A stretch of DNA of 64,000 nt from Cetorhinus maximus. Lineage: Eukaryota. The DNA lies in the NCBI RefSeq assembly GCF_964194155.1, contig NC_135881.1, positions 197,222,001 through 197,286,000 of the forward strand, given 5' to 3'. Made by a program: the position numbers and the translations under genes. Each line of letters opens with the position of its first letter. Position 1 is the stretch's first letter. The notes below the pieces were generated by a model. The model was not told the origin of the DNA, did no database searches, and was given only the letters and a program-made list of their open reading frames with translations. Below are positions 1 through 50,753 of this stretch, piece after piece.

Positions 1-138
1 TTAGATAATTTTCTGAAGCGAAAGATTTGCAGGGCTACAGTGGGAAAAGGCAGTTTATTGGACTAGGTGCGTTGCTCTTCAAGAGAGCCGGTATGGACAC
101 AAAAAGTCGAATGGTCTCCTTCCGTGCTGTTATCACTC
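1..138 (+). mobile_element. CR1-type LINE/SINE 3' end fragment
   Basis: Resembles the 3' UTRs of other CR1 copies in the window (…GAATGGTCTCCTTCCGTGCTGT). Confidence 0.5.
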
Positions 139-6492: not shown

Positions 6493-7377
6493 ATCAGCAG
6501 GTTCAAAATATGCGGACTCTCATTATTAATTTGGAATGAGCGCCCCCTGCATGATAATTATGTATTCAGTTATTGCATATCATGTACATTTGATAGTTTT
6601 GGCTATGCAATCACTAAACACATCACAGCAATCCATGTGGTTGATCAAATAAATTGCACAATATACCCAGGAAAGTCGTTTTCAGCAAATGGGCACAGGA
6701 ATCTTTCCAGGATAAAAAAGGTCGTTCATGGAGTACTGATGTTCCCTGCGCTGCTGCTGAAACGCTTCTGGCAAAGTTTATCGCCAATGCTTCGATATCT
6801 GGGCATTCACTCAGCTTAACTTAGGATCACTTATCAAAATTATTAGAGTGTCTAGGATTCAAGGGAGTATTTAACCTTGTGCGACAAATTACTCATCCTT
6901 GACTGTTGTACAAGAGTAGTCACAAAGATCACTATTGTTTGTCATTTTACCCAATTCTAATGTAATTCAAAAACTGACAAAGCTTTCTGGCTTGAAAGTA
7001 TAATTACACAACACTGAATATTATCAGTAATTCTAGTACAGCCTATTTCTAACGCCATTATCTATAGCAATTTCCTACATTACTAACACCAGCAATAGGT
7101 TAGGTTCTACATCATTATTGCAAAGGTCTAAGTGTAGCCTCAAAACCTCCAAAGTCATTACGCAAATAAAACCACACCGAGAAATAATTATATTATCTAG
7201 GAATATTGAATGAAACACAAAATGCTTCAGGGACCCCTGTCATTGTGCACCGCAACTGCCCTTCCTGCCCGATTGAGCCCAGAGACAATTTGAAGTCCAG
7301 AAGCCAGATCAGACACACTGGAAATTTTAACTTCTGTCTGTGCATCAGTAAATGTGAAGTAATAACTAATAAATAGA

Positions 7378-7577
7378 TCTGAAAGCATCTGTGGAGAGAA
7401 AGACAGAGTTAACATTTCGAGTCCAGATGACTTTTCTTCAGACTCCAGTCATCTGTACTCGAAACTTTAACTCTGTCTTTCTCTCCGCAGATGCTGTCAG
7501 ACCTGCTGAGTTTTTCCAGCAATTTTTGTTTTTGTTTCAGATTTCCAGCATCCACAGTATTTTGCTTTTTACTTTAG
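7378..7577 (+). mobile_element. Penelope-derived short fold-back element with hammerhead motif
   Basis: Inverted arms around ~7445; 13-bp TSD ACTAATAAATAGA (7365-7377 / 7578-7590); homologous to the 3' end of the PLE at 31328-32927. Confidence 0.85.
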
Positions 7578-9633
7578 ACTAATAAATAGAATTGGATTCA
7601 TCAAAACAATGCTAGGTTCAGGAAGACACTGGCCATATGGGAACCATATCAGTTAATCACTTGTCACAGTCTGAATAAAAGGGCCTCCACATGCAGGCTT
7701 CATGTACTCCCCAGTAGCCATTCTTTGCAGCAAAGGTGTGGGGTAGGGGGTGATTTCTAATTTAAAAAGAACACTGATTTCAGTTTACATTTTAGAAGTT
7801 TCTGCAAAGCTCATTTAAAAATTGGACAGTTATCAACCCTATCGTGCTGCATGATCTGTATTAAGCAATTCAATTAGGGATATTTATTTTATGATAGCTG
7901 GTTCTCAATGGGGAAGTTTAATTGTAATTGTGTTTCCCTCGTTGTGAGATCTTGCCTAGCCTGCAAATATAAAACTATACAGATCATTCAGCAGCTATTA
8001 CATCACTCCTAATGCTGAATCTTTCAGGGGAGCAGTGGGTAATGGTGAGAACAATGGCTGAGTAAAGGAGCAGGAAATACTGGAGATCTTTCTTTCAAAT
8101 TGTTAGCAATCCCCTGTAAACTATCTATCGGGTTTAAAAGTGCCATTAAAAGATATGAGTCATGATAGAAGTAAGCCAATGTGCAGCAATGTTTTTTTGC
8201 TAAATTATGTGAGAATAATGCTATTGTAGGCCCTTATTCTGCACCATTTCATTAATTTAGCATTACCATATAGCTATTCCCTTTGCCCTCCTAATGTGTT
8301 CCCAAAAAATGGCATTCTAAATGAAAATCAATTTCCCCTAAGAAAACGTGTAAGAAGGGCTCTTGACCTGTAGTTTTACATTTAAAACCTATTGTCTATC
8401 TGGCCCAAAAATCCTATTTCTAACTTTTCCTCACTTGTTAACTCAACTACTTAAGAAGTCTTAATAACTTGCCTACTCTTTCTACTGCTTCCAGCTTGCC
8501 GCTTTCAGCTCGCTGCTTCTCTCCTGGAGCCTCCTGCTCATCGCTTCCCTACCCCGACCACCCAGCTCGATACTTCCCTCTCTACCCGTTACCTCTCCTT
8601 CTCTCCGGCCCTCCTGCTTGCCGACTTTTCCACTCGCCACTTCCCTCTCCCAACCCTCCTGTTTGCAACATACCTTTTGCTCATCATATCCCACCCCCCT
8701 CCCCCCGACTCTCCTGCTCCTTCTTGTTTGCCATTTCCCTTTCCCGAACTCAGTTTGAACGAGGGCTTGGGAGAGAGATGGTGAGTGGGAAAGCGAGCAA
8801 GGGAGGGAGGGCGATGGGCTCTGAGTTGGAGGTAGGGAGCAGGTCAGGGAGGGAAACAGCGAGTGGGAAGGTTGGCGAGTAGGAGGTGACAAGTGGGAGG
8901 AGTCAGCAAGCAGGATAAGCAGGAGGGTTGGGGAGAGGAGCTGCCAGTGGGAGAGGGAAGTGGGAAGGTCAGGAGAGGGAATTGGCAAAGTGGCCATTTG
9001 TTTTTTAAAAAGACTGCGCATGCTTAGTAACCGTGCTAACACAAAAATGGAGGCAGCGTCTGGATTTCTGCATTTAACTGCGTATGTGCATACTCCAGAA
9101 GTTGTCAGATTTCCTCCATTATAATAGTGAATGCTGATGGCCTCGCCAATATTTTCATTGTAAATTCGGGTCTACACCCTATGCATGTGAATGTTGGGGA
9201 CACTTTGTGAAAAGCCTGCAGAAGCAGAATCTTAAACGCACATTGTATAGAGCATGGATTGACATTTGGTCAGATATACCAGTGTACATTAAGATTACGA
9301 TAGTCACTGGTGTATAACTAATGGTGTTTGTCCAGTAGACCATTGTTAATTTTAAGTTCCATTAAAATGGGTGGAAATGCACGCACAATTCTTTTTAAAC
9401 CAAAAGAAAAATTGATCTTTCCAAAGCTGGTCTTAACCAGTTCTGATCAAGCAGTAGAGTTCACATATTCAGTAGTTGTCCCTAAACATTCCATTTACTG
9501 TCTTTTGACAGACATGGATTCCATCTTAATTTATGCAATTCGAGCAAATGATAATTGACAATTCTGTGGTATGTTAACCTATTCACTCCACCTGAGGTGT
9601 ATAATTAAGCTAAGAGAAATGGGCCTACATAAT

Positions 9634-10228
9634 CAAAAACAAAAATACCTGGAAAAACTCAGCAGGTCTGACAGCATCTGCGGAGAGGAACAAAGTTAAC
9701 GTTTCGAGTCCGTATGACTCTTCAACAGAACTAAGGAAAAATAGAAAAGAGGTGAAATATAAGCTGGTTTAAGGGGGGTGGGACGGGTAGAGCTGGATAG
9801 AGGGCCAGTGATAGGTGGAGATAACCAAAAGATGTCATAGACAAAAGGACAAAGAGGTGTGAAAGCTGGTGATATTATCTAAGGAATGTGATAATAAAGG
9901 TACAGATAGCCCTAGTGGGGGTGGGGTTGGTTATCACATTCCTTAGATAATATCACCAACTTCAACACCTCTTTGTTCTTTTGTCTCTGACATCTTTTGG
10001 TTATCTCCACCTATCACTGGCCCTCTATCCAGCTCTACCTGTCCCACCCCCCTTTAAACCAGCTTATATTTCACCTCTTTTCTATTTTTCCTTAGTTCTT
10101 TTGAAGAGTCATACGGACTCGAAACGTTAACTGTGTTCCTCTCCGCAGATGCTGTCAGGCCTGCTGAGTTTTTCCAGGTATTTTTGTTTTTGTTTTGGAT
10201 TTCCAGCATCCGCAGTTTTTTGTTTTTT
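9634..10228 (+). mobile_element. Penelope-derived fold-back element with ~260-bp inverted arms
   Basis: Left arm 9634-9892 is the reverse complement of ~9931-10196, with a ~38-nt spacer. The sequence matches the PLE 3' region at ~44880-45163. No clear TSD. Confidence 0.88.
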
Positions 10229-10867
10229 GCTTCTGTCTTACTGAATAATGACTCTTTGGAGAAGCCCGGTTTGTAGCTGACTGTTTTAAACATTTTTTGC
10301 TGAGGCTCACAAGGGGTCATTATCAGCGAGTCCTAGATCAGTTAAAAAATGGAATAGATAGAAATGCAGGAGAGTACTGTCAATAACTACCTTGACTTGT
10401 GCCTTTGGCACCTCCAGACTTGACTACTCCAGTGCTCTCAGGCTGGCCACGTACCAGTGTTACTGAAGAAAAGGGCAATTGTCCCCCATATTTGAAACAC
10501 TAATTCACCTTCTCCCCTTGACTATATTCTGACTGAGGCTATGTCGACCTCTATCAGTGCTACTCTGTAACTGGCTGTTGAATGTACAAGAGAACAGAAT
10601 GACTAATTTTCCAATTTTCCTCTTGTGCTGAATGCTTGGCTACACGCTCACTTTAAAATCATAATAAAAAATATTCATGCATCTTGATATCAGCAGATTA
10701 TAACACTTCAGATTTCAACAAATGCAAGCTACTGATGATTTGATTAAAATAAAGCAGTTTCAAAGCTCTTAAAAGCAGAACAGATCATGGTAGACATCAA
10801 TAAGGAAGGCTATTTGGCCCATCTGGTCTCATTCACACAGAAAAACATTATAGCTCCAGTCATGGAA

Positions 10868-17358: not shown

Positions 17359-18044
17359 ATATGCTGAATGCCAAATTTTAATCTCAACAAATCTGTAAAA
17401 GTGTTGTTGACATTTTTTTCCCTGCCCTGCATTATATTTCATTTTATTTAGTATTCCAGAGACAAGTAAACTATGGTAGACATATTCCAATGGTGTGAAG
17501 TCTGAACCACTTAAATTAAATTTCGCTCAACATTTGTGAAAATCTATAACTAATGCCATTATACAGAAATAAAACCACATGGATTCCTTCTTAGAGAAAG
17601 ATGCTCATTAGTCAATACCAGCACCACGAGCAGAGTCATTTTGACCCTGCTAACCAGTATCTCTACATTTCACATGTTCCCATAATGGAAACTGCGTTTG
17701 TTCCTGGAGAGCTCATTTGCTTTTAAACAAGGAGGCAGCCATGACATACTCTATTCTTTCACTTTGTGGTTTTCAAATAATAATGATATCTTTGTAAGCT
17801 AAATTGCCCCTATTCCTCATTTGATACCAAGGGTATGAAATGCCTAAACTGTCCTCTTCTATCTTGGTACTGGTCCCATTAGATCATTCATTTTCTTCAG
17901 CAAGAATGACAAGAAGGCTACCCACAGCTAGGTCTCGATCAACATTCTCTACCTACCGTAAACTTTAAAGCCTTTTTCTCTTAAACTGCTTCAATTGTAG
18001 GAACGTGCCCTGTCATGATTGATAACATGTAAATACATAACTGA

Positions 18045-18249
18045 AAAAACTCAGCAGGTCTAACAGCATCTGTGGAGAAAAAAGCAGAGTTGACGTTTCG
18101 AGTCCGTATGACTCTTCTTCAGAATGAAAAAGTCATACGGACTTGAAACATAAACTCTTGTTTTTTTTCTCACAGATGCTGTTAGACCTGCTGAGTTTTT
18201 CCAGTATTTTGTTTTTGTTTCAGGTTTCCAGCATCCGCGGTATTTTTCT
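18045..18249 (+). mobile_element. Penelope-derived fold-back element
   Basis: Inverted arms around ~18124; 15-bp TSD TAAATACATAACTGA / TAAATATATAACTGA (18030-18044 / 18250-18264). Confidence 0.85.
18087..18124 (-). ncRNA. Minimal type I hammerhead ribozyme motif (canonical core, GUC triplet)
   Basis: Minus strand reads UU-CUGAAGA-A-GAGUC-AUACG-GACUC-GAAAC-GUC-AACUC. The 5' strand of stem I is truncated by the inversion. Confidence 0.7.
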
Positions 18250-18699
18250 TAAATATATAACTGATTTTGTCGGTTATCAGCACTAAGGCTAAATAAAATG
18301 TTTTTCTTTCAAATTTCAATAGATTGAGACTCCAATAATGCCTCTAAGTACAAACCCAATTTGTAATTATTAGATAAGTGAGATAATAATGAGTTGAATT
18401 TAACCAAATAAAAGGACAGATCAGGTGCAAGTTAGTTTCTCAGTATAAATGCATAGCACATCCATTTCAACAACAGGCTTCCACATCTCACAATATTGGC
18501 TAAAGAGTCATCAAATAGGTTAATTAGATTTAGTTAAATTAATTAAAATTTCAACTCATGATTTCTGAGCTGCTATATAAATGACTTGACTCATTTAAAA
18601 CACAAATGATAAAAAATTATGGAAACACGAAGTAGGTCATCAACATCTGCAAATAGCAACTTGGTGTTTTGCACTTCTAAGGATTTATCAATGCACTTG

Positions 18700-28939: not shown

Positions 28940-29066
28940 TTCAGATGCAAGGTCATCGAGGTTAACTCTGTTTCTTTCTCCACAGTTGCCACCAGACCTG
29001 CTGCATATTTACAGCATTTTTTGTTTTTATTTCAGATTTCCAACATCCAGAGTATTTTGCTTTTGC
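28940..29066 (+). mobile_element. Old short Penelope 3' end copy
   Basis: GTTAACTCTGTTTCTTTCTCCACAG…AGACCTGCTG…TTTCAGATTTCCAACATCC. Confidence 0.65.
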
Positions 29067-31435
29067 AATTGTGTTGAATGCTGTGCAAATATTGAAGAGG
29101 ACATGGGGGCACAGGTAGTCACAAAGGATGTTGTTGATGACTTAACACCTGGGTAATCAGTCATCAGTGACATCCTTGGAAAATATTATGGATTTGTGCA
29201 ACATTGGCAATACCAAAGGTAGTTTAGAAATTTGTATTTTTCCTGATTAAGCATGCAGGAAAATATAAATGGTACCATATAATGCCTTTTGAGATTATAC
29301 TTAGTTTAAGCAATTTATTGAAAAGCTGCCCCAGTTATTCTTTTGATGGAAAGCTGGGGAGGGAGGTGGGTGGGCAAGGTAAAAGGTAGTGCAGCAGTAT
29401 TTAAAATACAAAATAATTATGAGAATTTACAAATTTTTGTATTATCTTCAAGTTAAAGGTTGGACAGATTATTCACTTTGCTGAAAAGGCCACTGCAGAG
29501 TGCAATAGGATGTACTGGAAATCAAGCTGCACACATCTTAAATAATAATAGGGGTAAGGCAATAAACAACCACATTTATCTGTTGGATTTCACTGCTTAC
29601 AACCTGGGGCCTTTTAATTCTACATCTAATGGTCACACATCACACATTGCAGCTGTCTAGCTAGTAATTAAGATGGAACCTATTACAGCAAATGTTGCTT
29701 GTAAATGACTGATTAATTTAATGCTTGCTTCCTATAATTTCGATCTCTTTTTGTAAGTGACTTGTTTAAAAAGCTAAAAAAAAGCCTATTGCTGTATCGT
29801 TCAAAGTCAACATTGTAGCTTTCTTGTTTTAAAACTTAGACGCATCCAAGAGAGTAAATTGATTTTATCAGCAATACATGCAGTAAATAAGACACACATT
29901 TTATCTCGTTCTTCAATTAAAAATTAGCAGCAATTTGTCCCCTGAATGGCCGAGCAATAATGTTAATAACCCAATGAACATCAGGGGTGAAGGGAAAAGA
30001 AGACCATAATTCAGGAAGTTACGCCCAAAATTGTCAATTTTCCTATTATCAATTTACACCTAAATTTCCTTCTAATCTTATTAGCATGTAAAATTCAGCA
30101 AAAACAAGTGAAAACCAGGTGTAAACAATTATGGTTAAGAGCATGCAAAGTGGAAGCTTTTAAATTTGTTATGTGACTCCGATTGAAGCTATAAAAAAGC
30201 ATTGAAAGGAACATGAAATGTAGTGCAGGTTTAATTAAATCACAATAAAACACCAGAAAAATGACTATTTTCTGCTGTGTCTAAAGTTCTGGCCTTAATT
30301 TTATATCTAATGTGAACAATGTAATTGCAGGGAAGTTGCATGTACAGCTCTTTAGCATGTGGGGTCAGTATAATGAATCTATATGCATTCAGGCACAAGG
30401 ATAAAAATCTAAATGCACCCCGTAAAATAAAGTTTAAAATATACAACCGTGTCTTGTCTTTTGAGTCAGTTCTTCACTGTCTGGATAAAAGGATGCTGCC
30501 ATGCATTAAAATCCTCACAAGGGCCTGGATTAAACATTTAGAGATGAGCAAGCTTGGGATGTGGCATTGGAATTGGATGCCTAATATCAAAAGTGGCTCT
30601 ATGAGACAAGCCACACCATGTATTCCACCATGTTGAATGCAGGCATTATATAGCTGATGAGGAAAGTGTTGGAATTATAGCTTTTGAAGGTGGGTTATGA
30701 GTTCACATGTTTAGTCCAGTAAAACAAAAGATAAAATACTGCTGTTACCGCTCTCAAACAACAGAAAATCATGGAAACTCTCAGCAAGTTTTGAGAAGGA
30801 TTATATCTTTCCAAAGTCATGAATAACATGCCATATGGCTGTGACAAAGGTAAACTATCGCTCCTTATCGTCTCGAACCATCTGCAGTCTTTGGCATGGT
30901 GGACCACATTATCCTCCTTCAATGCCTCTTCACCATCTGGGAAGGATTGCTCTCATTTGGTTCCATCCTAATCTAATTATAGCCAGAGTATCACTTGCGA
31001 TGGCCTCTCTTCCCACATCTGCACTGTTACCTCTGGTGTCCCTCAAGAGTCTATCCTTGGACACCTCTTTCTCATATACATGCAGTCCCTCAATGACACC
31101 ATCCTAAAACATAGTGTGAGTTGTCACACATACACTGATGGCACCCAGTTCTACCTAACCACCCCCTCTCTCGATTCCTCCACTGTTGCTAAATTATCAG
31201 GCTGCTTAGCCAACATCCAGTACTCAAATGAAAAGAAATTTCCTCCAATTAAATATTGGAAAGACTGAAGCCATTGATTTTGGTTCCCGCTCCAAACTTT
31301 TTCCCTAGCTACTGACTCCATTCTCATAGATAAAAACAAAAAGCTAAAAAGCTACTGCGGATGCTGGAAATCCAAAACAAAAACAGAATTACCTGGAAAA
31401 ACTCAGCAGGTCTGGCAGCATCGGCGGAGAAGAAA

Positions 31436-31478
31436 TCAGTTAACATTTCGAGCCTTCATGGCCCTTCGGCAGAACTGA
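31436..31478 (-). ncRNA. Minimal hammerhead-like motif in the PLE 3' region (A6C core variant)
   Basis: UCAGUU-CUGCCGA-A-GGGCC-AUGAA-GGCUC-GAAAU-GUU-AACUGA; perfect 6-bp stem I and 5-bp stem II. Confidence 0.6.
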
Positions 31479-31845
31479 AGCATAGTTAGGAGAAGGGAGA
31501 ATTATAAACTGGTTTAAGGGGGGGGGGGGGGCGAAGAGGGAAGTTGAGGGTGTGGTGATTGTGGAGATAAGCAGTGATAGGAGCAGATAATCAAAAGATG
31601 TCACAGACAAAAGGATCAAAGAGGTGTTGAAGGTGGTGATATTTGTCTAAGAAAAGTGCTAATTAAGAATGGAAGACAGGATACTCAAAGTACAGCTCTA
31701 GTGGGGGTGGGGTGGACAGACTAACAAGGTTTTAGTTTTAGATTTAAAAATAATGGAAATAGGTGGAGAAAGAAGAATCTATATAAATTATTGAAAAAAA
31801 AAAGAGGGGGGGGAGAAACGGGGTGGGGATGGGGGGAGGGGGAGT

Positions 31846-32927
31846 TTAAGATCTAAAGTTGTTGAATTCAATATTCAGCCCAGAAGGCTGTAAAGTGCCT
31901 AGTCGGAAGATGACGTGCTGTTCCTCCAGTTTGCGTTGGGCTTCACTGGAACAATGCAGCAAGCCAAGGACAGACATGTGGGCAAGAGAACAGGGTGGAG
32001 TGTTAAAATGGCAAGCGACAGGGAGGTTTGGGTCTTTCTTGCGGACAGACCGCAGGTGTTCCGCAAAACGGTCGCCCAGTTTGCGTTTGGTCTCTCCAAT
32101 GTAGAGGAGACCGCATTGGGAGCAACGAATGCAGTAGACTAAGTTAGGGGAAATGCAAGTGAAATGCTGCTTCACTTGAAAGGAGTGTTTGGGCCCTTGG
32201 ATGGTGAGGAGAGAGGAAGTGAAGGGGCAGGTGTTGCATCTTCTGTGTGGGCATGGGGAGGTGCCATAAGTGGGGGTTGAGGAGTAGGGGGTGATGGAGG
32301 AGTGGACCAGGGTGTCCCGGAGGGAACGATCCCTACGGAATGCCGTCAGGGGGGGTGAAGGGAAGATGTGTTTGGTGGTGGCATCATGCTGGAGTTGGCG
32401 GAAATGGCGGAGGATGATCCTTTGAATGCGGAGGCTGGTGGGGTGATAAGTGAGGACAAGGGGGACCCTATCATGTTTCTGGGAAGGAGGAGAAGGCGTG
32501 AGGGAGGATGCGCGGGATATGGGCCGGACACGGTTGAGGGCCCTGTCAACGACCGTGGATGGAAAACCTCGGTTAAGGAAGAAGGAGGACATGTCAGAGG
32601 AGCTGTTTTTGAAGGTAGCGTCATCAGAACAGATGCGACGGAGGCGAAGGAACTGAGAGAATGGGATGGAGTCTTTACAAGAAGCGGGGTGTGAGGAGCT
32701 GTAGTCGAGGTAGCTGTGGGAGTCGGTAGGCTTGTAATGGATATTGGTGGACAGTCTATCATCAGAAATTGAGACAGAGAGGTCAAGGAAGGGAAGAGAA
32801 GTGTCAGAGATGGACCATGTGAAAATGATGGAGGGGTGGAGATTGGAAGCAAAATTAATAAATTTTTCCAGGTCCTGACGAGAGCATGAAGCAGCACCGA
32901 AGTAATCATCGATGTACCGGAGAAAGA
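31846..32927 (-). CDS. Partial Penelope polyprotein: RT motif C (RYIDD), thumb, Zn-linker and GIY-YIG endonuclease
   Basis: FLRYIDDYFG, LPFLD, YKPTDSHSYL, CPHRRCNTC and NLVYCIRCSQCGLLYIGETKRKLGDRFAEH, ending PSGLNIEF. About 360 codons with no stop; the first ~22 aa of the called ORF come from the flanking L2. Confidence 0.9.
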
Positions 32928-33309
32928 CATTCTCATCCCTGGCAACAGAGAGACTAAACCAGCATGTTTGCAAGCTTGGTGTCATATTTGACACCGAGAG
33001 GAGCTTCCGATCACATATTCAGACATCACTAAGATTGCCTATTTCCACCTCCATAACATGATCTGACTTCACTCATCTGCTGATGAAACCCTCATTCATG
33101 TCTTCATTACCTCTGGATGACTATTTCAACACACTCCTGGCTAGTATCCCACATTCTACCCTTCCTAAACTGATAATCCAAAACTCTGCTGCCAGCATCT
33201 AAAATCACACCAAGTGGCATTCCTCTATCACCCTGTGCTCGCTTAACTACATTGGCTCCTAATTAATGAGCATCTTAATTTTAAAAATCTCATCCTTGTT
33301 TTCATCCTT

Positions 33310-35627
33310 CACGTGTGATGACCCCAACAATGGCTAAGCAAGGTTCATCATCAGAGGTCAAAATGATACCAGACAGGTATTTGATTAGCTGAAACTTTCT
33401 TTAAAGACTTAAGATACTCCAAAAGAGATGTTTAGTAAATCTTCTCTAACTAAGGCTCAACAGGCTGATCCGGAGTTAAGTACGGTAGCACAATCAGCCC
33501 AAACTAAAGTTGAAGCTGAGGAAGTTCCAGAATGTTATTATATTAAAAATGGGATACTAATGAGGAAGTGGAGACCTCCTCACAGACCTGCAGACGAAGG
33601 GTTGACAGTTGTTCATCAAGTAGGGGTACTGCCCAAATATCATAAATAGATATTACAGTTGGCACATGAAATTCCTATGGCAGGACAAATAGGGATATGG
33701 AAAACTCAAGTGCGGATAAACCAACATTTTTACTGGCCAGGTCTTCACCAGGAAGTGGTGCAGTTTTGTAAAACGTGCCAGATGATAGGAAAACCACAAC
33801 CTACAATCAAACTGGCACCTTTAATTCCCATACCAGTTTTCAGGAAACCATTTAGTCGGGTGTTAATACACTGTGTGGAACTGTTACAAAACACGAAAGC
33901 AGGACACCAGTATATCCTTACTATTATGGATATGACAACTCGATTTCCAGAGGCCAATTACAGCTACAGGACAATTACAGCTAAAGTAGTAGTTGGGAAG
34001 TTAACCCAATTTTTTGCTCGATATGGATTGCCGACAGAGATCCAGTTGGATCAAGGTTCCAACTTTATGTCTAAAGTTTTTCAAAACATAATGAGTAGTT
34101 TGGGTATTAAACAGTTAAAGTCCACAGCATATCATCCACAAACACAGGGAGCTTGAGTGAGGTACCGTCAAGCTCTCAAAACAATGATTAAAGCATTTTG
34201 TCATGAATATCTCCATGATTGCGACAAAGGACTGGACTTTCTTTTATTTGCTACCCAAGATTCATCTACTGGTTTTAGTCCTTTTGAATTAAGTTATGGA
34301 CATGAGATAAGAGGTCCTCTGAAACTAACCAAAGAAAAGTTTTTAGGACAGAAAGATGAATACTTTATGTTAGACTATGTGTCTGCGTTCCAGGAATGGT
34401 TCAGAGGAGCCTGCAAAGTGGCTCACAGACATCTTAAAGTTTCTCAAACAAAGATGAAGGAATGGGCAAATAAGCAAGCTGTGACCCAAATGTTACAACC
34501 AGGGGATGAAGACTTTTGATATTACGAGCTAAGGAGATATTGGCTTTTGTCAAGCCGAATGGGCTATACCAATGTCAAGAATTTGCCATTTGGGCTAAAA
34601 CAATGCCCCAGCCACTTTCCAAAGACTAATGAATCAAGTTATAACTAGTGTTCCTAACTGCGTAGTTTACTTGGATGATGTATTGATTGACAGCAATACA
34701 TGGAAAGATCATGTAAAACAATTACGAGCCTTATTTAAACATTTACAGCTGGCAGATCTAGTAATAAACCTTGCCAAAAGTGAGTTCGCAAAAGTGCGAG
34801 TAACTTATCTAGGGCATTGTAGGGCAGGGGTAAGTGTTGCCAAGAATAGCAAAAGTACAGGCTTTGAAGGAATTCCCTGTCCCTGAAAATAAACGGGAAA
34901 TCATGAGGTTTTTAGGGATGTGCAGCTTCTATCGTAAGTTTGTGCCAAACCTCAGCACAATGTCTGCTGCACTAATAGATTTATTGCAAAGAAGGCAAAG
35001 GTGGTATGGTCAAGAAAGTGCCAGACAGCTTTTGAAAAGCTGAAGGCAATCCGAACTAATGAACCAGTGTTAACTGCCCCGAATTTCGCTAAACCCTTCA
35101 AGGTGGCAATCAATGCTAGTGACTTGGTGGTCTTATTATAAGATGACAAATTGGGCAAAGAGAGGCCCGTGGGGTACTTGTCTAAAAAATTAAGTTGCCA
35201 TCAAAAGAGATACTCTACAGTAAAAGAGGAAACCCTGGGATTGTTACTGGCTCTTTAACATTTTGAGGTTTATATTCATCATGGCTGTAAAGAAATACTA
35301 GTATACACTTACTATAATCCCTTAGCCTCTGTGGAAAGATTTAAGACTCAGAATGACAGACTGTTCCGATGGAGCTTCCTAATACAGCTTTACAGCTTAA
35401 AGATTGTTCATATTGCTGGAAAGGATAACATAATTGCAGATGCATTATCAAGAATGTAATTTCTGTAGAATTATCTGGAAAGCAAGAAAGTCAGAGAAAA
35501 GTGTACAGAATCTGAATAAGGAATGAATGGCTGAGTGAGGGCATGTTTGAATTTTGTTTTAGATGTTGTGTACACTTTGTAATGAAACACGTTTAAAATG
35601 GCATTTCATTTCTTAAAGGCAGAGGCA
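33310..35627 (+). mobile_element. Ty3/Gypsy-type LTR retrotransposon internal remnant with INT-RT-RH order (Gmr1-like)
   Basis: Integrase (AHEIPMAGQIG…FYWPG…FCKTC; DQGSNF; STAYHPQTQG) at 33659-34500 precedes RT (PFGL, YLDDVLI; 34560-34850) and RNase H (…PVGYLSKK…GKDNIIADALSRM*, stop ~35459). Frameshifted. Confidence 0.88.
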
Positions 35628-36770
35628 TGTCAGAACCATATCTTCAAGAACTATATTTTTCTTTTAAAATATGGGAAAGACATTGGACATTTTTGGACAT
35701 TGGACATATGGGAAAGACATTTGGACATTTTTTTTACAAAAAGGTCATGGGTTCACCTTTGAACTGGGAGCAAGCATGCCTTTTCCAAGAAATCACCTGA
35801 TCAGCATGGTACCTGATGGGGAAGAGCTGCAATTATTTTAATTGATGGGGAAAAAACTGGTTTAAAGGCAAAGACTAGTGATTTACTGGAAATCACATGA
35901 CAGAGATGAGCTTTAAGTTTTGAACTCAGTTGGGACTGAACTGAGAAAGGGAAAAACTGCCCAGCTTGCACTCTCTTTGACAAAAACAGAAATACCTGGA
36001 AAAACTCAGCAGGTCTGGCAGCATCGGCGGAGAAGAACAAAGTTGACGTTTGTTCTTCTCCGCCGATGCTGCCAGACCTGCTGAGTTTTTCCAGGTATTT
36101 CTGTTTTTGTTTTGGATTTCCAGGATCCGCAGTTTTTTTGTTTTTATTTTTGCACTCTCTTTGCCTTGCCCGATATCGTGTGATGGTCAGTGCCCAGCAT
36201 CTAAGTGGAACTGGTCTGTCCTTGAAAATCCAAGAGGGTGACATGGGAAGGATTGATCCAACTCTATTTTCCTCCACGCTGAAGCTCCGTTAGTGAGAAC
36301 CTCTAGGCACCTACTGGGACTAACGATCTGTCTTTACAAAAGGGAGCATTAGGTCAACAGCGTCGAAACCCTGTGAACTTCATCCTTTTCTTATGATTTT
36401 TTTTTCAACTGCCTGTCTCTGCAGAGACTCTACTTGCTTGTCGTTCGTTTGTGTGTGTGTGTGTGTGTGGGTGTGGGTGTGGGGGGGAAGCATGTGCGCA
36501 GTGGGGAATTTTAAAAGGGATAGTTATACTTCCAGATTACAATTGTCTATTAACCAGTTCTTGTAACTTGTTTTAAAAAAGAAGTTTGATTTTATAATAA
36601 ATCAATCATTTTAAGTATATTGAAAGAAGCCTGGTTAAAGTATCTTTTATTCTGGGTCTAACAGTAGCAAAGGCAAATAGTTGCCATTTTCCTGAGTGAA
36701 TTAAACTTTTAAACAAATGGTGTGACCTGCAGAGTAGTGGGGCTAGATAAACTGAGCATTCCTCCTATAT
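35628..36770 (+). mobile_element. 3' LTR of the Gmr1-like element (right end approximate)
   Basis: Purine tract AAAGGCAGAGGCA (35615-35627) is immediately followed by TGT; internal (GT)n and AATAAA at ~36596. Confidence 0.6.
35980..36149 (+). mobile_element. Penelope-derived perfect hairpin element inserted in the LTR
   Basis: Identical ~63-bp inverted arms; perfect 14-bp TSD TTGCACTCTCTTTG (35966-35979 / 36150-36163). Confidence 0.9.
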
Positions 36771-39555: not shown

Positions 39556-42460
39556 CTAACATACGAAATAGGAGCAGTAGTAGGCCATTCGGCCCCACGA
39601 GCCTGCTCTGCCATTCAATAAGATCATGGCTGATCTGTTTGTGCTGAGTTCTACATTCCCATCTACCTCTGATAACCTTTGATTCCCTTGGCCAGCAAGA
39701 ATCTATCTACCTCTGCGTTAAAAATATTCAGTGACCCTGCTTCCACTGCCTTCTGAGGCACAGTGTTCCAAAGTCGCACAACCCTCAGAAAAAATTTCTC
39801 CTCATTTCTGCCCTATAAGGGCGACCCCTAATTTTAAAACAGTGCTCCCTAGTTCTGGACTCACCCACAACAGGAAACATCCTTTCCATGTCCATCTTGT
39901 CAGGACCATTCAGGATCTTATATAATTCAATCAAGTCACCCCTCACTCTTCTAAACTCCAGTGGAAACAAGCCCAATCTTTCCAATCTATGCTCATAAGA
40001 CAATGCACTCATTCTAGGCATCAATCTAATAAACCTCCTCTGAACCGCCTCCAACGCATTTATATCCTTCCTTAAAAAAGGAGACCAAAACTGCACACAG
40101 TATTCGAGATGCGGTAACACCAATGCCCCGTATAACTAAAGCATAACGTCCTTACTTTTTTGTTCAATTCCTTTCATAATAAAGGATAATATTCCATTAG
40201 CCTTCTTGATTACATGCTGCACCTGCATGCTAACTTTTTGTGACTCATGCATGAGAACACCTAGATCCCTCTGCGCCTTTGAATTCTGCAGCCATCCTTT
40301 GTTTAAGTAATACTGGTTTTTTTATATTTCCTGCCAAAGTGAACAACTTCACATTTTGCCACATTATATTCCATCTGCCAGATTTTTGCCCGCTCACTCA
40401 ACTTATCTATATCCTGCAAACTTCTTCACAACATACTTTCTGTTGAAGGGTCATGTGGACTCGAAACGTCGACTCTTTTCTTCTCCACCGATGCTGCCAG
40501 ACCTGCTGAGTTTTTCCAGGTAATTCTGTTTTTGTTTTGGATTTCCAGCATCCGCAGTAGTTTTTTGTTTTTACTTTCCTACCTAGCTTTGTGTCGTCTG
40601 CAAATTTAGTTAACATGCCTTCACTCCCCTCATCTAAGTCATTGATGTAAATTGTAAAAAGTTGAGGCCCCAGGACAGACTCCTGCGGGACCCCACTAGT
40701 CACACCCTGCCAATCAGACGAAGGCCCATTTATGCATACTCTCTGTTTTTGGCCAACCAACCAATCCTCTATCAAGGCTAATATGTTACCACCTACACCA
40801 TGAGCTTTTATTTTCCACAATAACCTTTGATGTGGCACCTTATCAAATGCCTATGGAAATCCAAGTACAGTGTGTCTACAGCTCTCCTGTATCCATGGCA
40901 CATGTTACTCCTTCAAAAGAACTCTAATAAAATTGGTTAAACATGATTTCCCTTTCACAAAACCATGTTGATGCTTCCCGATTACCTTGTTTTTCAAGTG
41001 TCCAGCTATAACTTCCTTCATGATCGATTCTGACACCTTCCCTACAAAAGACATCAAACTAACGAGCCTATAGTTTCCTGTTTTCTGCCTCCCTCCCTTC
41101 TTGAATAGATGGGTTATATTTACTACTTTCCAGTCTGATGGAACCTTTCCAGAATCTAGGGAATTTTGGAAAATTAAGATCAATGCATCTACTAGCTCAT
41201 TAGCCACCTCTTTTAAGACCCTAGGATGAAGTCTATCCGGACCCAGAGATTTGTCAGCTCACAAATCCGTCAGTTTGCTCAGTACTGCTTTCCTAGTGAT
41301 TGTAATTTTACCAAGTTCCTCTCTCTCCTCCACCTCCTGATTTATTGCTATTACTGGAATGTTTTGAATAAAATTTCCTCTATAGTGAAGACAGAAACAA
41401 AATATTTGTTCATTTCATCCACCATTTCCTTATTATTTAATTTACCTCCCCATTCTCACTCTCCAGAGGACTGACACTCACTTTACCTACGCTTTTCCTG
41501 TTTAAATACCTGTAGAAACTCTTTATCCGTTTTTACATTTCTAGCTAGCTTCCTCTCATACTCCAATTTCTTTCTCCCGATTAACCTTTTAGACATTCTC
41601 TGCTATTCTTTATATTCTGACCAATCATCTGACTTGTCACTCTGCTATTCTTTATATTCTGGCCAATCATTTGACTTGTCACTCATCTTTGCACAGTTAT
41701 ACGTTTTTTCCTCAAGTTTGATTTAGTTAACCATGGGTGGTGGGTCCTCCCTTAAGAATTTTTCTTCTTAGTAGGAATACACTTATTCTGAAAAGTCCCC
41801 TTAAATGTCTGCTGCTGCTTCTCTACTGATCTATCTCCTAGCCTAGTATCCCAGTTCACTTCAGATAGCTCAGCTTTCACGCCCACATGGCTGCCCTTAT
41901 TTAAGTTTAAAATACTAGTCTTACATCACTCTTCCCCCTTTCATACTGGATGTAAAATTCAATCATATTGTGGTCACTGATACCTAGGGGTGCCTTTACC
42001 CTGAAGTTATTAATTAATTCCGTCATGTTACAGAATATCAAATCTAATATAGCCTGCTCTCTGGCTTGTTCCAAAAAGTGCTGCTCTGAGAAACTCTCTT
42101 GAAAGCATTCTATGAACTCCTCATCTAGGGTCCTACTGACAATCTGATTTACCCAGTTTATGTGTAGATTAAAGTCACCCAAGATTATTGCTGTCCTTTT
42201 ATTACAAGCACCCAATATTTCTTCTTGTATACTTTGTCCTACATTGTGGTTACTGTTAGGGGGCCTGTAGACCAGTCCCACTAGTGACTTCTTTCCCCTA
42301 CTATTCCTCATCTCCACCCAAACCAATTCTACATCCCGATCTCCTGAACCAAGGTCATCTTTAACTATTGCACCAATGCCATCCTTGATCAACAGTGCTA
42401 TCTCTTCACCTTTACCTATCTTCCTATTCTTCTTGAATGTCAAATACCCTCAATATTCAG
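39556..42460 (-). mobile_element. CR1 LINE, 5'-truncated ORF2, degenerate
   Basis: [48 protein letters not shown] and PHLEYCVQFWSP; TATGT tail at ~39560. Confidence 0.92.
40441..40571 (+). mobile_element. Short Penelope 3' copy nested in CR1, starting at the hammerhead core
   Basis: TSD TACTTTC (40434-40440 / 40572-40578); (C)TGTTGA-A-GGGTC-ATGTG-GACTC-GAAAC-GTC. Confidence 0.85.
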
Positions 42461-43972: not shown

Positions 43973-45383
43973 GGGATCAGGTTTTGCTGGAGTGAGACAT
44001 CTCATGGCATGCCTCATTATTTAGACTTGTTCGAGCATATTTAGATTTTTACATTTTTACACTGCTGGAAGTTAGAGCTGATGATGCACTGAGGTTTAAA
44101 TTACATTTGGAATCTTGGTGAACTATAATTAAAGAGATTTGTCCCAATGAGATTTAAAGATTTTTTAAAAATAGGAAACACTGAGAGCAAGGGTGATTGA
44201 GAGCAGGCGAATTCAATACCAAAACAGTTGAAGAACTGAAGAAAAGGAAAGAAAAATTGGATTGAGGGAGGTTAAAAACCAAAAGGAAAAATCAGAATGT
44301 TTTTGGCACTTTAAAAACATTCTAAAACAATTCACTATCTTAAGGAATGAGACTCCTCACTTATAATTGTTAACTTTCTAGGCATGAGAGGTTGGTCATT
44401 ACCAATCATTACAAACATCATTAAAAAGATGTTTAGTAAATACCAAACTTAACTTTCTGTTAACTTCGGTCTGGTCGCAAGCATTACCCAGACCTCCCTG
44501 TCGCTTGCCATTTCAACACTTCACCCTGCTCTCATGCCCGTCCTTGGCTTGCTGCATTGTTCCAGTGAAGCTCAACGCAAACTGGAGGAACAGCACCTCA
44601 TCTTCCGACTAGACACTTTACAGCCTTCTGGACTGAATATTGAGTTCAACAATTTTAGATCATGAACTCTCTCCTCCATCCCCACCCCCTTTCCGATCCC
44701 CCCCTTTTTTTCCCAATAATTTATATAGATTTTTCTTTTCCCACCTATTTCCATTATTTTTAAATGTATTTCCATCCAGTTTTATCTCTACCTTTTAGCC
44801 TTTTTTGATTCCTTCACCCCACCCCACCCCCACTAGGGCTATCTGCACCTTGCTTGTCCTGCTTTCTACCCTTAATTAGCACATTCCTTAGATAATATCA
44901 CCACCTTCAACACCTCTTTGTCCTTTTGTCTGTGACATCTTTTGGTTATCTCCACCTATCACTGGCCCTCTATCCAGCTCTACTTGTCCCACCCCCCCTT
45001 AAACCAGCTTATATTTCACCTCTCTTCTATTTTTATTTAGTTCTGTTGAAGGGTCATTCGGACTCGAAACGTTAACTGTGTTCCTCTCCGCAGATGCTGC
45101 CAGACTGCTGAGTTTTTCCAGGTATTTTTGTTTTGGATTTCCAGCACCCGCAGTTTTTTGTTTTTAACTTTCTGTGACAAGTTTAATGGCCAATTAATGT
45201 GCAAATGCAGGAACTTCACACTGCTTTCACAAAGCTAATGGAGGAGCGACGTAAATCAGCCAACAATTTGTGGCATTTCGCAATTCACAGATTATCGCTT
45301 CCTCACTACAGGTTGCTGGATGATTTGTGCATTAACAGTGTATGTCATTGAAATGCTGTTAAATGGTCAGCAAGATCTGAGCC
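43973..45383. mobile_element. TIR-bounded non-autonomous DNA element hosting a PLE fragment
   Basis: GGATCAGGTTTTGCTG … CAGCAAGATCTGAGCC (13/16 inverted match). Confidence 0.45.
44461..45163 (+). mobile_element. Penelope 3' fragment (GIY-YIG C-terminus + 3' region; hammerhead motif at 45038-45078)
   Basis: 12-bp TSD TTAACTTTCTGT (44449-44460 / 45164-45175); highly similar to the reverse complement of 31340-32050. Confidence 0.9.
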
Positions 45384-47049: not shown

Positions 47050-49912
47050 CTACAAAATTAATAAAAGGACAAAACTAAAAGCTCTGTATCTAAACGTACA
47101 TAGCATTCGAAACAAAACAGATGAACTGATAGCGCAAGTAAAAATAAGTACAATCTGATAGCCATTACAGAGACATGGCTACAGGATGACATAGATTGGG
47201 ACCTGAATATTGAAGGGTTTGTGACATTTAGGAAGGACAGGAAGTTAGGAAAAGGTGGTGGGGTGGTTCAGTCAATTAATGACAGTATTAGCACATTAGA
47301 GGGGGGTAACCTAAGTTCAGGAAACCAGGATGTATAAGCAGTTTGGGTTGAGATGAGAAAGTATAAAGGCAAAAAGTCACTTGTGGGAGTGGTGTACAGG
47401 CTCCCTAATTATAACTACATGGTAGGACAGGGTATAAAAGAAGAGATAATGCGAGCTTGTCAGAAAGATACAGCGAGAAATCAGATGGGCAAAGGCAGCA
47501 TAGCTGAGGAGTTCACAGAATGTTTTCAGGATAGTTTCTTAGAACAGCACTTTCTGCAGCCAACCAGAGAGCAGGTTATACTAGACCTGGTATTGAGCAA
47601 TGAGGTCGGATTAATTGATAACATCGTAGTGAAGGTAACCCTAGATATCAGCGATCATAATATGATTGAATTTTATATTCATTTGAGGGAGAAATGACTG
47701 CATCCAAGACTAGTATTTTAAACTTAAAAAGGACAATTATGAGGGCATGAAAGCAGAGCTAGTTAAAGTGAACTGGCAAATGAGGTTAAGGGATAGCTCA
47801 ATAGAGGTTTAGTGGCAGACATTTAAAGGGATATTTCAGAATACACAGCATATATACATTCCAATGATAAAGAAAAACTCCAAGGGGAGGGCCCACAATC
47901 CGTGGTTAACAAAAAAAGTTAAAGACAGTGTCAAACTTAAAGAAAAAGCATATAATTACGCAAAGACGGGTGGCAGGTCAGAAGGTTGGAAAGAATTTAA
48001 AGAACAGCATAGAATGATAAGAAGGTTAATAAGGAGAGAAAATTAGAGTACGAAAGAAAGCTAACTAGTAATATAAAGATGGATAGTATGAGTTTCTATA
48101 GATAATTAAACAAGAAAAGAGTTAACAAAGTGAGCGTTGGTCCTATAGAAAGTGCATCTAGGGAATTGATAATGGAAAGTAAGGAGATAGCAGGTGAATT
48201 AAACAGGTATTTTGCTTCAGTCTTCACTATAGAGGACACAAGTAACATCCCGGAAATAGCTAAGTCAGGAAATGGAAGGGAGGGAAGAACTCAGGAAAAT
48301 TACAGTCACCAATGAATTGGTATTGAACAAATTGTTGGGGCTGCGGGCTGACAAATCCCCAGATCTGGATGGACTTCACCCCAGAAGAAGAGGCTAGTGA
48401 GATAGTTGATGCAATGGTTTTAATTTTCCAAAGCTCCCTAGATTTGGGGAAGGCTCCATTACATTGGAAAATAGTAAATGTAACTCCTTTATTCAAAAAG
48501 AGAGGGAGACAGAAAACAGGAAACTACAGGCCAGTTAGCCTAACATCTGTCATAGGGAAAATGTTAGAAGCTATTATTAAAAATGTTATAGCAGGGCACT
48601 TAGAAAAATTTAAAGCAATCAGACAGAGTCAACATGGTTTTGTGAAAGGGAAATCATGCTTAACCAATTTATTGGAGTTCTTTGAAGGAGTCACATGTTC
48701 TGTGGATAAAGGGGAAGTGGTGGATTTCGACTTCCAGAAGGCATTTGATAAAGTGCCACATCAAAGGTTATTGTGGAAAATAAAAGCTCATAGTGAAGGG
48801 GGTAACATATTTGCATTGATAGAAGATTGGCTAGCTAAAAGGAAGCAGAGAGTTGGCATAAATGGGTCTTTTTCTGGTTGGTAGGGTGTGATGAGTGGTG
48901 TGCCACAAGGATCAGTGCTGTGGCCTCAACTTTTTACAATTTATATAAATGATTTGGATGAAGGGATTGAAGGAATAGTTGCTACATTTGCTGAAGATAC
49001 AAAGATAGGTAGGAAAATAAATTGTGAAGAGGACATAAGGAGGCTACAAAGTTGACATAGATAGGTTAATTGAGTGGGCAAAAGTTTGGCAAATGGAGTA
49101 TGATGTGGACAAATGTGAAATTGTACATTTTGGCAGGAAGAATAAAAAAGAAGCTTATTAGCTAAATGGTGAGAGATTGCAGAGCTCAGATTCAGAGGGA
49201 ACTGGGTGTCCTAGTACATGAATCACAAAAGGCTAGTATGTAGGTACAAGTAATCAGGAAAGCTAATAGAATATTATCATTTGAGAGGGGAATTGATTAC
49301 AAAAGTAGGGAGATTATGCGTCAGTTGTACAGGACACCGATGAGACCACATGTGAAGTACTGTGTACAGTGTTGGTCTCCTTATTTAAGGAAAGATGTAA
49401 ATGTATTAGCAGTGTAGAGAAGGTTTACTAGACTAATACCAGGAATGGGCAGGTTGTCTTATGAGGAAAGGTTGGACAGGTTAGGCTTCTTTCCACTGGA
49501 ATTTAGAAGAGTAAGAGGTGGCTTGATTGAAACCTTCTAAGACCCTGAGAGGTCTTGACAGGGTGGATGTGGAGAGGATGTTCCCTCTTGTGGGAGAATC
49601 TAGAACTAGGGGTCACTGTTTAAAAATAAGGGGTCGTTCATTTAAGACAGAGATGGGGAGAAATTCTTTCTCTCCGAGGGTAGAGTGTCTTTGGAATTCT
49701 CTTCCTCAAAAGACAGTGGAGCAGTCTCTTTGAATATCTTTAAGATAGAGCTAGACAGATTCTTAATTAACAAGGGGATGAAAGATTATCGGGGTTGGCA
49801 GGAATGTGGGGTTGAGGTTACAATCAGATCAGCCATGATCTTATTGAATGGCAGAGCAGGCTTGAGGGGCTGAGTGGCCTACTCCTGCTCCTAATTCGTA
49901 TGTACGTATGTT
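47050..49912 (+). mobile_element. CR1 LINE, near-complete ORF2, degenerate
   Basis: AITETWL, GVVYRLPN, ISDHNMI, GNYRPVSLTS, DFQKAFDKVPH and GVPQGSVL; TATGTACGTATGT tail. Same subfamily as 39556-42460. Confidence 0.92.
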
Positions 49913-50591: not shown

Positions 50592-50753
50592 TGAAGTTCT
50601 GAAGAAGTGGAGTGGAGTTCTGAAGAAGACTCATACGGACTCGAAACATTAACTCTGTCTTTCTCTCCACAGATGCTGTCAGACCTGATGAGTTTTTCCA
50701 GCAATTTTTGTTTTTGTTTCAGATTTCTAGCATCTGCAGTATTTTGCTTTTAT
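50592..50753 (+). mobile_element. Short Penelope 3' copy with hammerhead motif (50615-50655)
   Basis: 13-bp TSD CCACCAACTATTC (50579-50591 / 50754-50766); GAGTT-CTGAAGA-A-GACTC-ATACG-GACTC-GAAAC-ATT-AACTC. Confidence 0.85.

Follow-up and report, generated by a model that had tools for sequence, protein, structure and literature searches.

A truncated Penelope-like element and its hammerhead

The window, the whole stretch of 64,000 nucleotides of Cetorhinus maximus contig NC_135881.1 analysed here, carries a young Penelope-like insertion that is truncated at its 5′ end. Its DNA is ∼95% identical to the full-length copies L142 and L133, and it comprises the C-terminus of the reverse transcriptase (RT), the zinc linker, the GIY-YIG domain, a 3′ pseudo-LTR with a hammerhead motif and a tail.

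31328..32927, reverse strand: young Penelope-like insertion, 5′-truncated
31846..32925, reverse strand: element-coded part of the ORF, 359 amino acids, with the YxDD region, the CX4CxxC linker and GIY-YIG
32928..32936, reverse strand: candidate 9 bp target-site duplication (TSD), 5′ copy; short, identical to 31319–31327 and abutting the element end
31319..31327, reverse strand: candidate 9 bp TSD, 3′ copy, abutting the element end
31436..31478, reverse strand: minimal type I hammerhead, C6C7 variant
Core of 31436..31478, reverse strand: C3 at 31472, C6 at 31469, A9 at 31466, extra A at 31465, G12 at 31449, U17 at 31442
Stem II of 31436..31478, reverse strand: 31464–31460 with 31454–31450
Predicted cut of 31436..31478, reverse strand: between 31442 and 31441
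31472..31478, reverse strand: initiator-like heptamer over the 5′ strand of stem I; its A at 31476 is the main 5′-end position of the family

The heptamer is called initiator-like by comparison with the initiator consensus, and the A at 31476 is the likely transcription start. A strong splice-donor-like 5′ site lies ∼50 nt downstream of the cut in all subfamilies (31380–31410 in the window, reverse strand), and a pyrimidine tract with YAG directly precedes the core, again in all subfamilies; contigs gave no sign of an intron in this 5′ region.

The product of 31846–32925 is 98% identical to residues 567–925 of L142, and its GIY-YIG domain matches PF01541 with E = 1.6e-4, slightly under the curated cut-off. 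The 390-residue frame at this locus is 5′-truncated, and what it contains outside 31846–32925 is read-through into the flank. At least 150 genomic relatives of the protein piece are 98–100% identical to it (150 scored of 113,574 candidates). The 20 loci that were fetched have open frames of 924 or 925 residues, in tandem and inverted arrangements, and in eight of them (L127, L128, L131, L132, L133, L137, L142 and L146) a C6 motif is present on either side of the frame. The hammerhead thus sits in the pseudo-LTRs of the element, on both sides of its ORF. The mean difference among 15 intact frames is 0.39%, and the amplification is therefore very recent.

The full-length protein is encoded by a single ORF and combines an RT (PF00078) with a GIY-YIG endonuclease (PF01541) at its C-terminus, both at or just under the curated Pfam cut-offs. 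A DKG motif is visible in the translation, as is a CX4CxxC zinc-finger linker between RT and endonuclease; a CX2-5CxxC linker is part of the definition of EN+ Penelope-like elements (PLEs) of the Neptune/Nematis type (10.1101/2021.04.23.441226). Pseudo-LTRs, tandem and inverted insertions and a tail are all present. Judged by these features, the element fits a Neptune/Nematis-type, Neptune-like Penelope. A non-LTR retrozyme, which consists of non-coding head-to-tail repeats with a hammerhead in each (10.64898/2026.07.22.740005), was rejected, as the motif is part of an element that codes for protein and of truncated pieces derived from it.

Two further observations concern the full-length copies. 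In most young copies the strand of the main ORF holds a second, overlapping frame of 275 codons that is free of stops (for example L127:5652–6479) and is probably a by-product of composition. In L131, L132 and L136 the 5′ pseudo-LTR starts a few bases apart at about −260, at a second initiator-like site.

Further copies in the window

The original prediction described eight copies of one hammerhead layout in the window. All eight (8/8) are where it placed them and have the cores it claimed, and 31436–31478 indeed accompanies an ORF, lying 3′ of the GIY-YIG-bearing frame. The layout is far above chance, with 67,024 matches genome-wide versus 0 for a reversed-pattern control. Besides the copy described above, the window holds the following pieces of the family.

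9631..10236, unstranded: inverted pair of pseudo-LTR fragments with hammerheads at 9693–9733 (reverse strand, U6) and 10093–10133 (forward strand, U6, decayed by G5U)
7375..7575, unstranded: older inverted pair with an A6 hammerhead at 7406–7443 (reverse strand); the inversion junction breaks stem I
18037..18250, unstranded: older inverted pair with an A6 hammerhead at 18087–18124 (reverse strand)
35980..36151, unstranded: inverted pair of 3′ pieces; junction ∼7 nt upstream of the cut site, core absent
40438..40578, forward strand: short solo copy that begins at −33, with a U6 hammerhead at 40440–40475
44818..45172, forward strand: pseudo-LTR fragment, U6 hammerhead at 45038–45078
50615..50752, forward strand: short solo copy starting at −35, A6 hammerhead at 50615–50655
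28961..29064, forward strand: old decayed 3′ piece of 76–84% identity, starting a few bases from the cut site and not precisely mappable

The loopless stem III with its palindrome, also part of the original prediction, holds for the family, with CG at 15.2–16.2 in 181 of 224 copies, but the palindrome is lost in three copies of the window. In 31436–31478 the ACGU palindrome has gone through C15.2U at 31445, which we count as decay; the 7406 copy has likewise lost it through C15.2U, and the 50615 copy has G16.2A.

The hammerhead family was absent from the 20 Rfam matches for the 64 kb window at E ≤ 10, and the microRNA matches there were rejected as artefacts of inverted repeats. A PDB search found no relative. 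The window also contains a stop-broken integrase fragment of an LTR retrotransposon (33650–34519, forward strand; PF17921 and PF00665) and frame fragments of LINE-type endonuclease/RT at 4647–5015, 40407–40850, 41907–42449 and 48327–48884, two of them with matches to PF14529 and PF00078. One of these fragments encloses the solo copy at 40438–40578.

Position 6 is a subfamily trait

Genome-wide counts were made in the 4.0 Gb genome with a pattern that fixes the core except for positions 6 and 7, and cover the copies that fit this pattern. A6 is found in 10,825 of the 67,024 matches (16%) and C6 in 22,379. The other 33,820 are U6 or G6, with U in nearly every one of the matches listed. In the youngest stem II lineage C6 accounts for 9,232 of 9,268 matches, and the other 36 include four with A6.

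We further classed 209 copies by the letters 3′ of the cut site, with 21 left unclassed, in a sample that is biased by the search patterns; divergence is given for non-CpG positions. C6 is found in all copies of the youngest class (58/58, 0.6% divergence) and of the second (42/42, 2.0%). The third class is mixed (U6 in 11 and C6 in 9 of 20 copies, 2.5%), as is the fourth (U6 in 21, A6 in 12 and G6 in one of 34, 3.6%), while the oldest classes have mostly A6 at 11–12% divergence. A tree calculated with positions 6 and 7 masked reproduces this age ladder. Its bootstrap is unsettled, its flank bases bring in noise and its root is arbitrary, and the direction A to U to C therefore rests on the divergence.

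The age ladder and the lineage counts bear out the proposal that young subfamilies have replaced A6: changes at this position are fixed in subfamilies that amplify. The age classes and the near-uniform C6 of the youngest lineage led us to reject decay after insertion as the source of C6 and U6. A shifted register for the CUGCUGA subfamily was likewise rejected, as the A9 position holds G. The canonical core C3 U4 G5 A6 N7 G8 A9 is present only in the older subfamilies; the copy at 31436–31478 and the youngest lineage depart from it. Because A6 is missing, we file the motif as a variant rather than as a canonical member, although it appears to work like a minimal Penelope hammerhead. The youngest subfamilies additionally have U17, a residue at which cleavage is slower. 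The old A6 subfamilies (L196, L199, L206 and L217; L209 and L210) have a C·A mismatch within stem I, while the young C6 and U6 subfamilies combine a perfect stem I with a variant core, and activity may be held low by different means.

Pairing of the stems

We scored pairing in the 224 copies whose frame is intact. In stem II each of the five pairs is 96–98% paired. At pair 4, U-A (122 copies), C-G (90) and U-G (5) are found, and at pair 1 G-C (202) and A-U (8). These double-sided changes substantiate the claim that stem II keeps its pairing while it changes. For stem I the same claim was overstated. Pairs 1–4 form a helix that is 91–96% paired, but the covariation that had been quoted for it is weak, since the paired share drops to 71% of the copies at pair 5 and 49% at pair 6, and it mostly reflects coincidence with a junction or flank. 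In the copies at 7406, 18087, 40440 and 50615, what stands 5′ of the core is not element sequence but flank or an inversion junction. Covariation of stem I past four pairs was rejected on these pairing rates.

The remaining signature of the fold is in place. G12 A13 A14, A15.1-U16.1 and the NUH triplet are in the majority in the anchor-only listings, and an extra nucleotide between 9 and 10.1, G10.1-C11.1 and a covarying stem II are all found. None of the ten other core positions varies in the 19 hand-picked rows, where G12 A13 A14, A15.1-U16.1 and the NUH triplet are likewise constant in 19 of 19, a count that is partly circular because some rows come from patterns that require the core. In the same rows the structure is 84% paired, against 16–44% in slid controls. 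The number of double-change pairs in the 19 rows was no better than in shuffles (285/500); the double changes there represent a few evolutionary events and not independent samples. Folding of monomers in their context predicts stem I pairing with a probability of 0.0–0.25 in eight of nine copies, and neither monomer nor self-dimer folding discriminated between the subfamilies.

Where copies start and end

We number the first base after H17 as +1, which places C3 at −31 and the A that opens stem I at −35. The 5′ ends of 325 copies, mapped against natural references, fall most often at −35 (19), −34 (15), −33 (11) and −32 (9), and none of the 325 starts between −1 and +1. One of the patterns behind this map enriched broken copies; in the subset from anchor-only searches or unselected DNA, 38 of 130 copies start between −40 and −32. 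Ten copies starting between −35 and −32 have exact TSDs of 10–17 bp that abut the start. The typical short copy thus begins at the hammerhead's 5′ edge, as would run-off cDNA from a transcript whose first base is that of the hammerhead, and most templates were therefore probably uncut.

Tail ends cluster at +63..75 and +109..121, and RT would start internally at these distances downstream of the hammerhead. Given where these ends map, retention of the motif for RT recognition, which the original prediction had offered as the alternative to an active ribozyme, finds no direct support.

The change G12A is common to both arms of three single insertions (L268–L270), which suggests that cleavage is not required at each insertion; its 187 occurrences do not differ significantly from the 154 of C11.1U (p = 0.08). 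RNA with a core killed by G12A seems to have been copied. In a separate case, L266–L267, a young inverted insertion was duplicated locally over 5.6 kb with identical flank, and all three motifs have G12A.

A 3′ splice site at the edge of stem I was considered as the source of the −35 peak, an idea prompted by the pyrimidine tract and by the D. virilis intron (PMC4209133). It is disfavoured, as TSDs run straight into the element-derived A and G (L034 and L063) and a shared upstream exon is lacking; other transcripts may still use such a site. In L295, L333, L347, L349, L359, L365 and L373, inverted copies are joined via the 6 bp inverted repeat of stem I, as if cDNA that had reached the RNA 5′ end had folded on stem I and primed itself. 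Such fold-backs could explain some of the inverted pseudo-LTR structures of Penelope elements.

A footprint at the predicted cut site

A second set of 5′ ends came from a genome-wide filter restricted to young copies of the C6 class with a break in the interval −5 to +5. It gave 125 matches, of which 100 were fetched and 93 were distinct. Among the matches listed, starts were found at −5 (6), −4 (6), −3 (3), −2 (11), −1 (7), +1 (33), +2 (3), +3 (6), +4 (9) and +5 (9). Seven of the +1 rows were set aside as fold-backs through the stem I inverted repeat, and L299 was moved from −1 to +1 after its flank had been identified. The corrected count is 27 of 86 rows at +1 versus 3–11 at each neighbouring position, among the matches listed. 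After duplicated events had been merged and six joins with at least 2 nt of microhomology dropped, 18 events remained at +1, compared with 6.7 on average (Poisson p from 7e-5 to 1.5e-3, again among the matches listed). At three loci two arms both end at +1 around a single base.

Starts at +1 make up ∼1% of young copies (1/100 rows, a rough scaling). The counts cover the C6 and the U6/A6 classes, and it took the genome-wide filter to bring out the peak. Among the first 30 of 146 matches of the U6/A6 class the excess is weak, with 6 starts at +1 versus 1–4 elsewhere. The dinucleotide step at the site is U-A or C-A in most classes and U-G in the youngest, of which L374, L291 and L372 nonetheless start at +1. 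Neighbouring pyrimidine steps have no peak of starts.

Ribosomal RNA joined at the cut site

Five independent insertions have rRNA fused exactly at +1, three with 18S and two with 28S.

L415: 18S, fragment end at ∼nt 1380
L374/L418: 18S, fragment end at ∼nt 1380
L379–L381: 18S, fragment end at ∼nt 1380; one event, copied three times, 16 bp TSD
L299: 28S, 274 nt, 97.4% identity, end at ∼nt 725; 16 bp TSD
L449: 28S, 82 nt, 96.3% identity, end at ∼nt 2939

The −5..+5 filter yielded three of these, while L449 is one of 20 rows chosen by eye out of 70 listed and L415 came from a search started from the 18S side alone; two (L415 and L449) belong to the U6 or mixed U6/A6 classes. Microhomology to the continuation of the rRNA is 0 nt in four of the five joins and 1 nt in L374. 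TSDs of 16 bp around L299 and L420 place the precise join inside a single insertion, as in RtcB chimeras. Within the C6 filter, rRNA is present in 3 of 24 events at +1 versus 0 of 59 elsewhere (Fisher p = 0.022), and adding the 0 of 58 flanks at −36..−32 gives a combined p of 0.004. In the 18S-side search (100 of 281 matches listed, large contigs) all three element-joined fragments meet the element at +1, and two others sit on LINE-like ends. Rfam searches of 20 further flanks found no more known RNA, and blastn with the 20 flanks picked by eye found one 28S piece.

Hammerhead cleavage leaves a 5′-OH end. Since RtcB needs such an end, our reading is that the RNAs were ligated before they were copied. 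RtcB joins cyclic-phosphate ends to 5′-OH ends and accounts for U6/L1 chimeras, as described in PMC6789731. Template switching is possible as well, because the same 18S end is also joined to LINE-like ends. Two such 3′ ends with tandem tails carry it (L413:1520 and L417:1520), and a third 18S piece (L416:1520) ends 3 nt beyond that point, so that 18S ∼nt 1380 looks like a recurrent rRNA break point that supplies retrocopies. L413 has a further 28S piece of 209 nt ∼900 nt away.

Interpretation

The reading that we prefer, with a probability of roughly 0.55, is that the pseudo-LTRs carry a weakened ribozyme, C6 in its youngest and U6 in its intermediate form, that is occasionally cut in vivo at the canonical site. 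Taken together, the copies that start at +1 and the five rRNA fusions make it likely that the motif is still cut in living cells. The bolder version, in which the C6 core itself still self-cleaves in the germ line and powers the dominant active retrotransposon, and in which the +1 copies and retrotransposed rRNA ligations would be fossil proof of it, we put slightly below an even chance. As the cut product has lost its core, subfamily linkage alone points to the core that did the cutting. For another hammerhead, a comprehensive mutagenesis gave low activity when the CUGA turn was changed (PMC9901934), and a natural A6C hammerhead is slow yet active and Mn-selective (PMC3088659, PMC7151607).

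In this mechanism, transcription would start at the A that opens stem I, making the motif the first 35 nt of the RNA, and RT would start internally downstream, usually on uncut RNA. Cleavage would be rare, probably in a dimer formed via the ACGU palindrome and perhaps aided by the protein of the element. The cut product with its 5′-OH end could be joined by an RtcB-type ligase to cyclic-phosphate rRNA fragments and then copied. A cut at every insertion is likely not needed. The choice originally posed between an active ribozyme and a structure for RT recognition thus turns into some of both: most copied RNAs are uncut, and a sharp minority, together with the five fusions, begins at +1.

The C6 core may instead be dead and the same bond cut by an A6 copy in trans, as a heterodimer, or by a host pyrimidine-specific nuclease, which we consider unlikely. 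Pyrimidine-A steps in RNA are labile and most classes have one at the site, yet L374, L291 and L372 start at +1 with the U-G step of the youngest class, and adjacent pyrimidine steps are without a peak. A trans-acting partner could come from the more than 10,000 A6 matches, which have the 5′ strand of stem I and the palindrome in common with the other copies, and in the dimer one molecule provides the core and another the strand that is cut (PMC4209133); the Mg-dependent rate of A6C falls as low as 3.55e-6 per min in one construct (PMC7151607). The A6 copies are, however, old fragments, while a single transcript of tandem or inverted C6 copies carries two C6 motifs, and the rest of the core stays fixed throughout the C6 lineage.

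If nothing is cleaved, the motif would persist as core-promoter DNA or as an RNA fold that binds protein, and the excess at +1 would be produced by an RT that stalls or switches template where stem I ends. The main 5′-end peak at an initiator-like heptamer overlapping stem I, the apparent copying of G12A templates, the seven +1 rows that are fold-backs through stem I and the proliferation of PLE clades that lack hammerheads (10.1101/2021.04.23.441226) are all compatible with this. It is nevertheless quite improbable, as the rRNA fusions are found at +1 in five of five cases and in none of the 58 flanks at the far commoner −35 end, stem II has double-sided changes, and a stalling RT would be expected to stop on entering the helix (+6) and not on leaving it. 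At least as improbable, in our estimate, is a fully efficient ribozyme that is conditional on Mn2+, a protein or dimerization and whose cut RNA is degraded or rarely copied. A6C cleaves well in Mn2+ (0.18–0.31 per min; PMC7151607), protein-assisted cleavage is reported for PAc (PMC11167929) and genomic copies sample only those RNAs that survive to be copied; against it, free Mn2+ in cells is far below Mg2+ (PMC7151607) and only ∼1% of the young copies start at +1. The weakened, occasionally cut ribozyme remains our preferred reading.

Comparison with known systems

The motif closely resembles the minimal type I hammerheads of metazoan PLEs (PMC4209133), which likewise sit in pseudo-LTRs, have the extra 9/10.1 nucleotide and G10.1-C11.1, lack loop 3, are palindromic at 15.2–16.2 and occur as scattered solo and inverted copies. 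The representative rows compared from Fig. S3 of that paper have A6 throughout, with a descriptor that demands it, and include no cartilaginous fish, whereas C6 and U6 form the majority here; U3-A8 is the sole core covariant reported in the parts compared, whereas here C6 is fixed in the youngest lineage. The substitution is shared with the A6C hammerhead of phage Bcep176 (PMC3088659, PMC7151607), whose tested core CUGCUGA is that of the youngest subfamily. That ribozyme is a single intergenic one with a full stem III, in contrast to the over 22,000 matches found here in a vertebrate retrotransposon, whose fold is minimal and presumably dimeric, and U6 is not reported in the parts of the two papers compared.

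The Poseidon element PAc of the green anole (PMC11167929) likewise has two internal RT starts bounding the tail and uncut RNA as the dominant template. Its core is canonical and its ORF begins inside the hammerhead, whereas here the ORF begins ∼150 nt downstream; its authors saw no reads at the cut site, whereas here genomic copies mark it. According to that work, protein assists a Poseidon hammerhead, and insertion in vitro can do without the motif (PMC11167929). With the U6/LINE-1 RtcB chimeras (PMC6789731) the fusions share a non-coding RNA 5′ of a retrotransposon, the lack of microhomology and one TSD (L299 and L420). The acceptor end varies in those chimeras; here the donor is rRNA, the acceptor is fixed at the hammerhead cut site and the chemistry is inferred.

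The freely accessible papers and preprint texts covered mention neither position-6 variants in PLE hammerheads nor rRNA at PLE cut sites, and the phage is the one A6C case among them; Lunse et al. 2016 (RNA Biol 14:1499) may bear on novelty. By its title, that study concerns small Penelope-associated hammerhead variants that cleave as dimers, an architecture like the one here.

A footprint at the cut bond, combined with rRNA fusions, amounts to a cleavage test from sequence only, applicable wherever a genome holds many copies. A motif search with A6 as a requirement would overlook 84% of the matches here. The natural A6, U6 and C6 series within one lineage, with its intact young elements, provides ready constructs for asking what level of catalysis the element depends on and if a weak core can be rescued by its protein or by Mn2+. 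If true, the bolder version, with a C6 core that itself self-cleaves, would provide in vivo evidence for cleavage by a Penelope hammerhead and for a non-canonical core that is gated by protein or metal.
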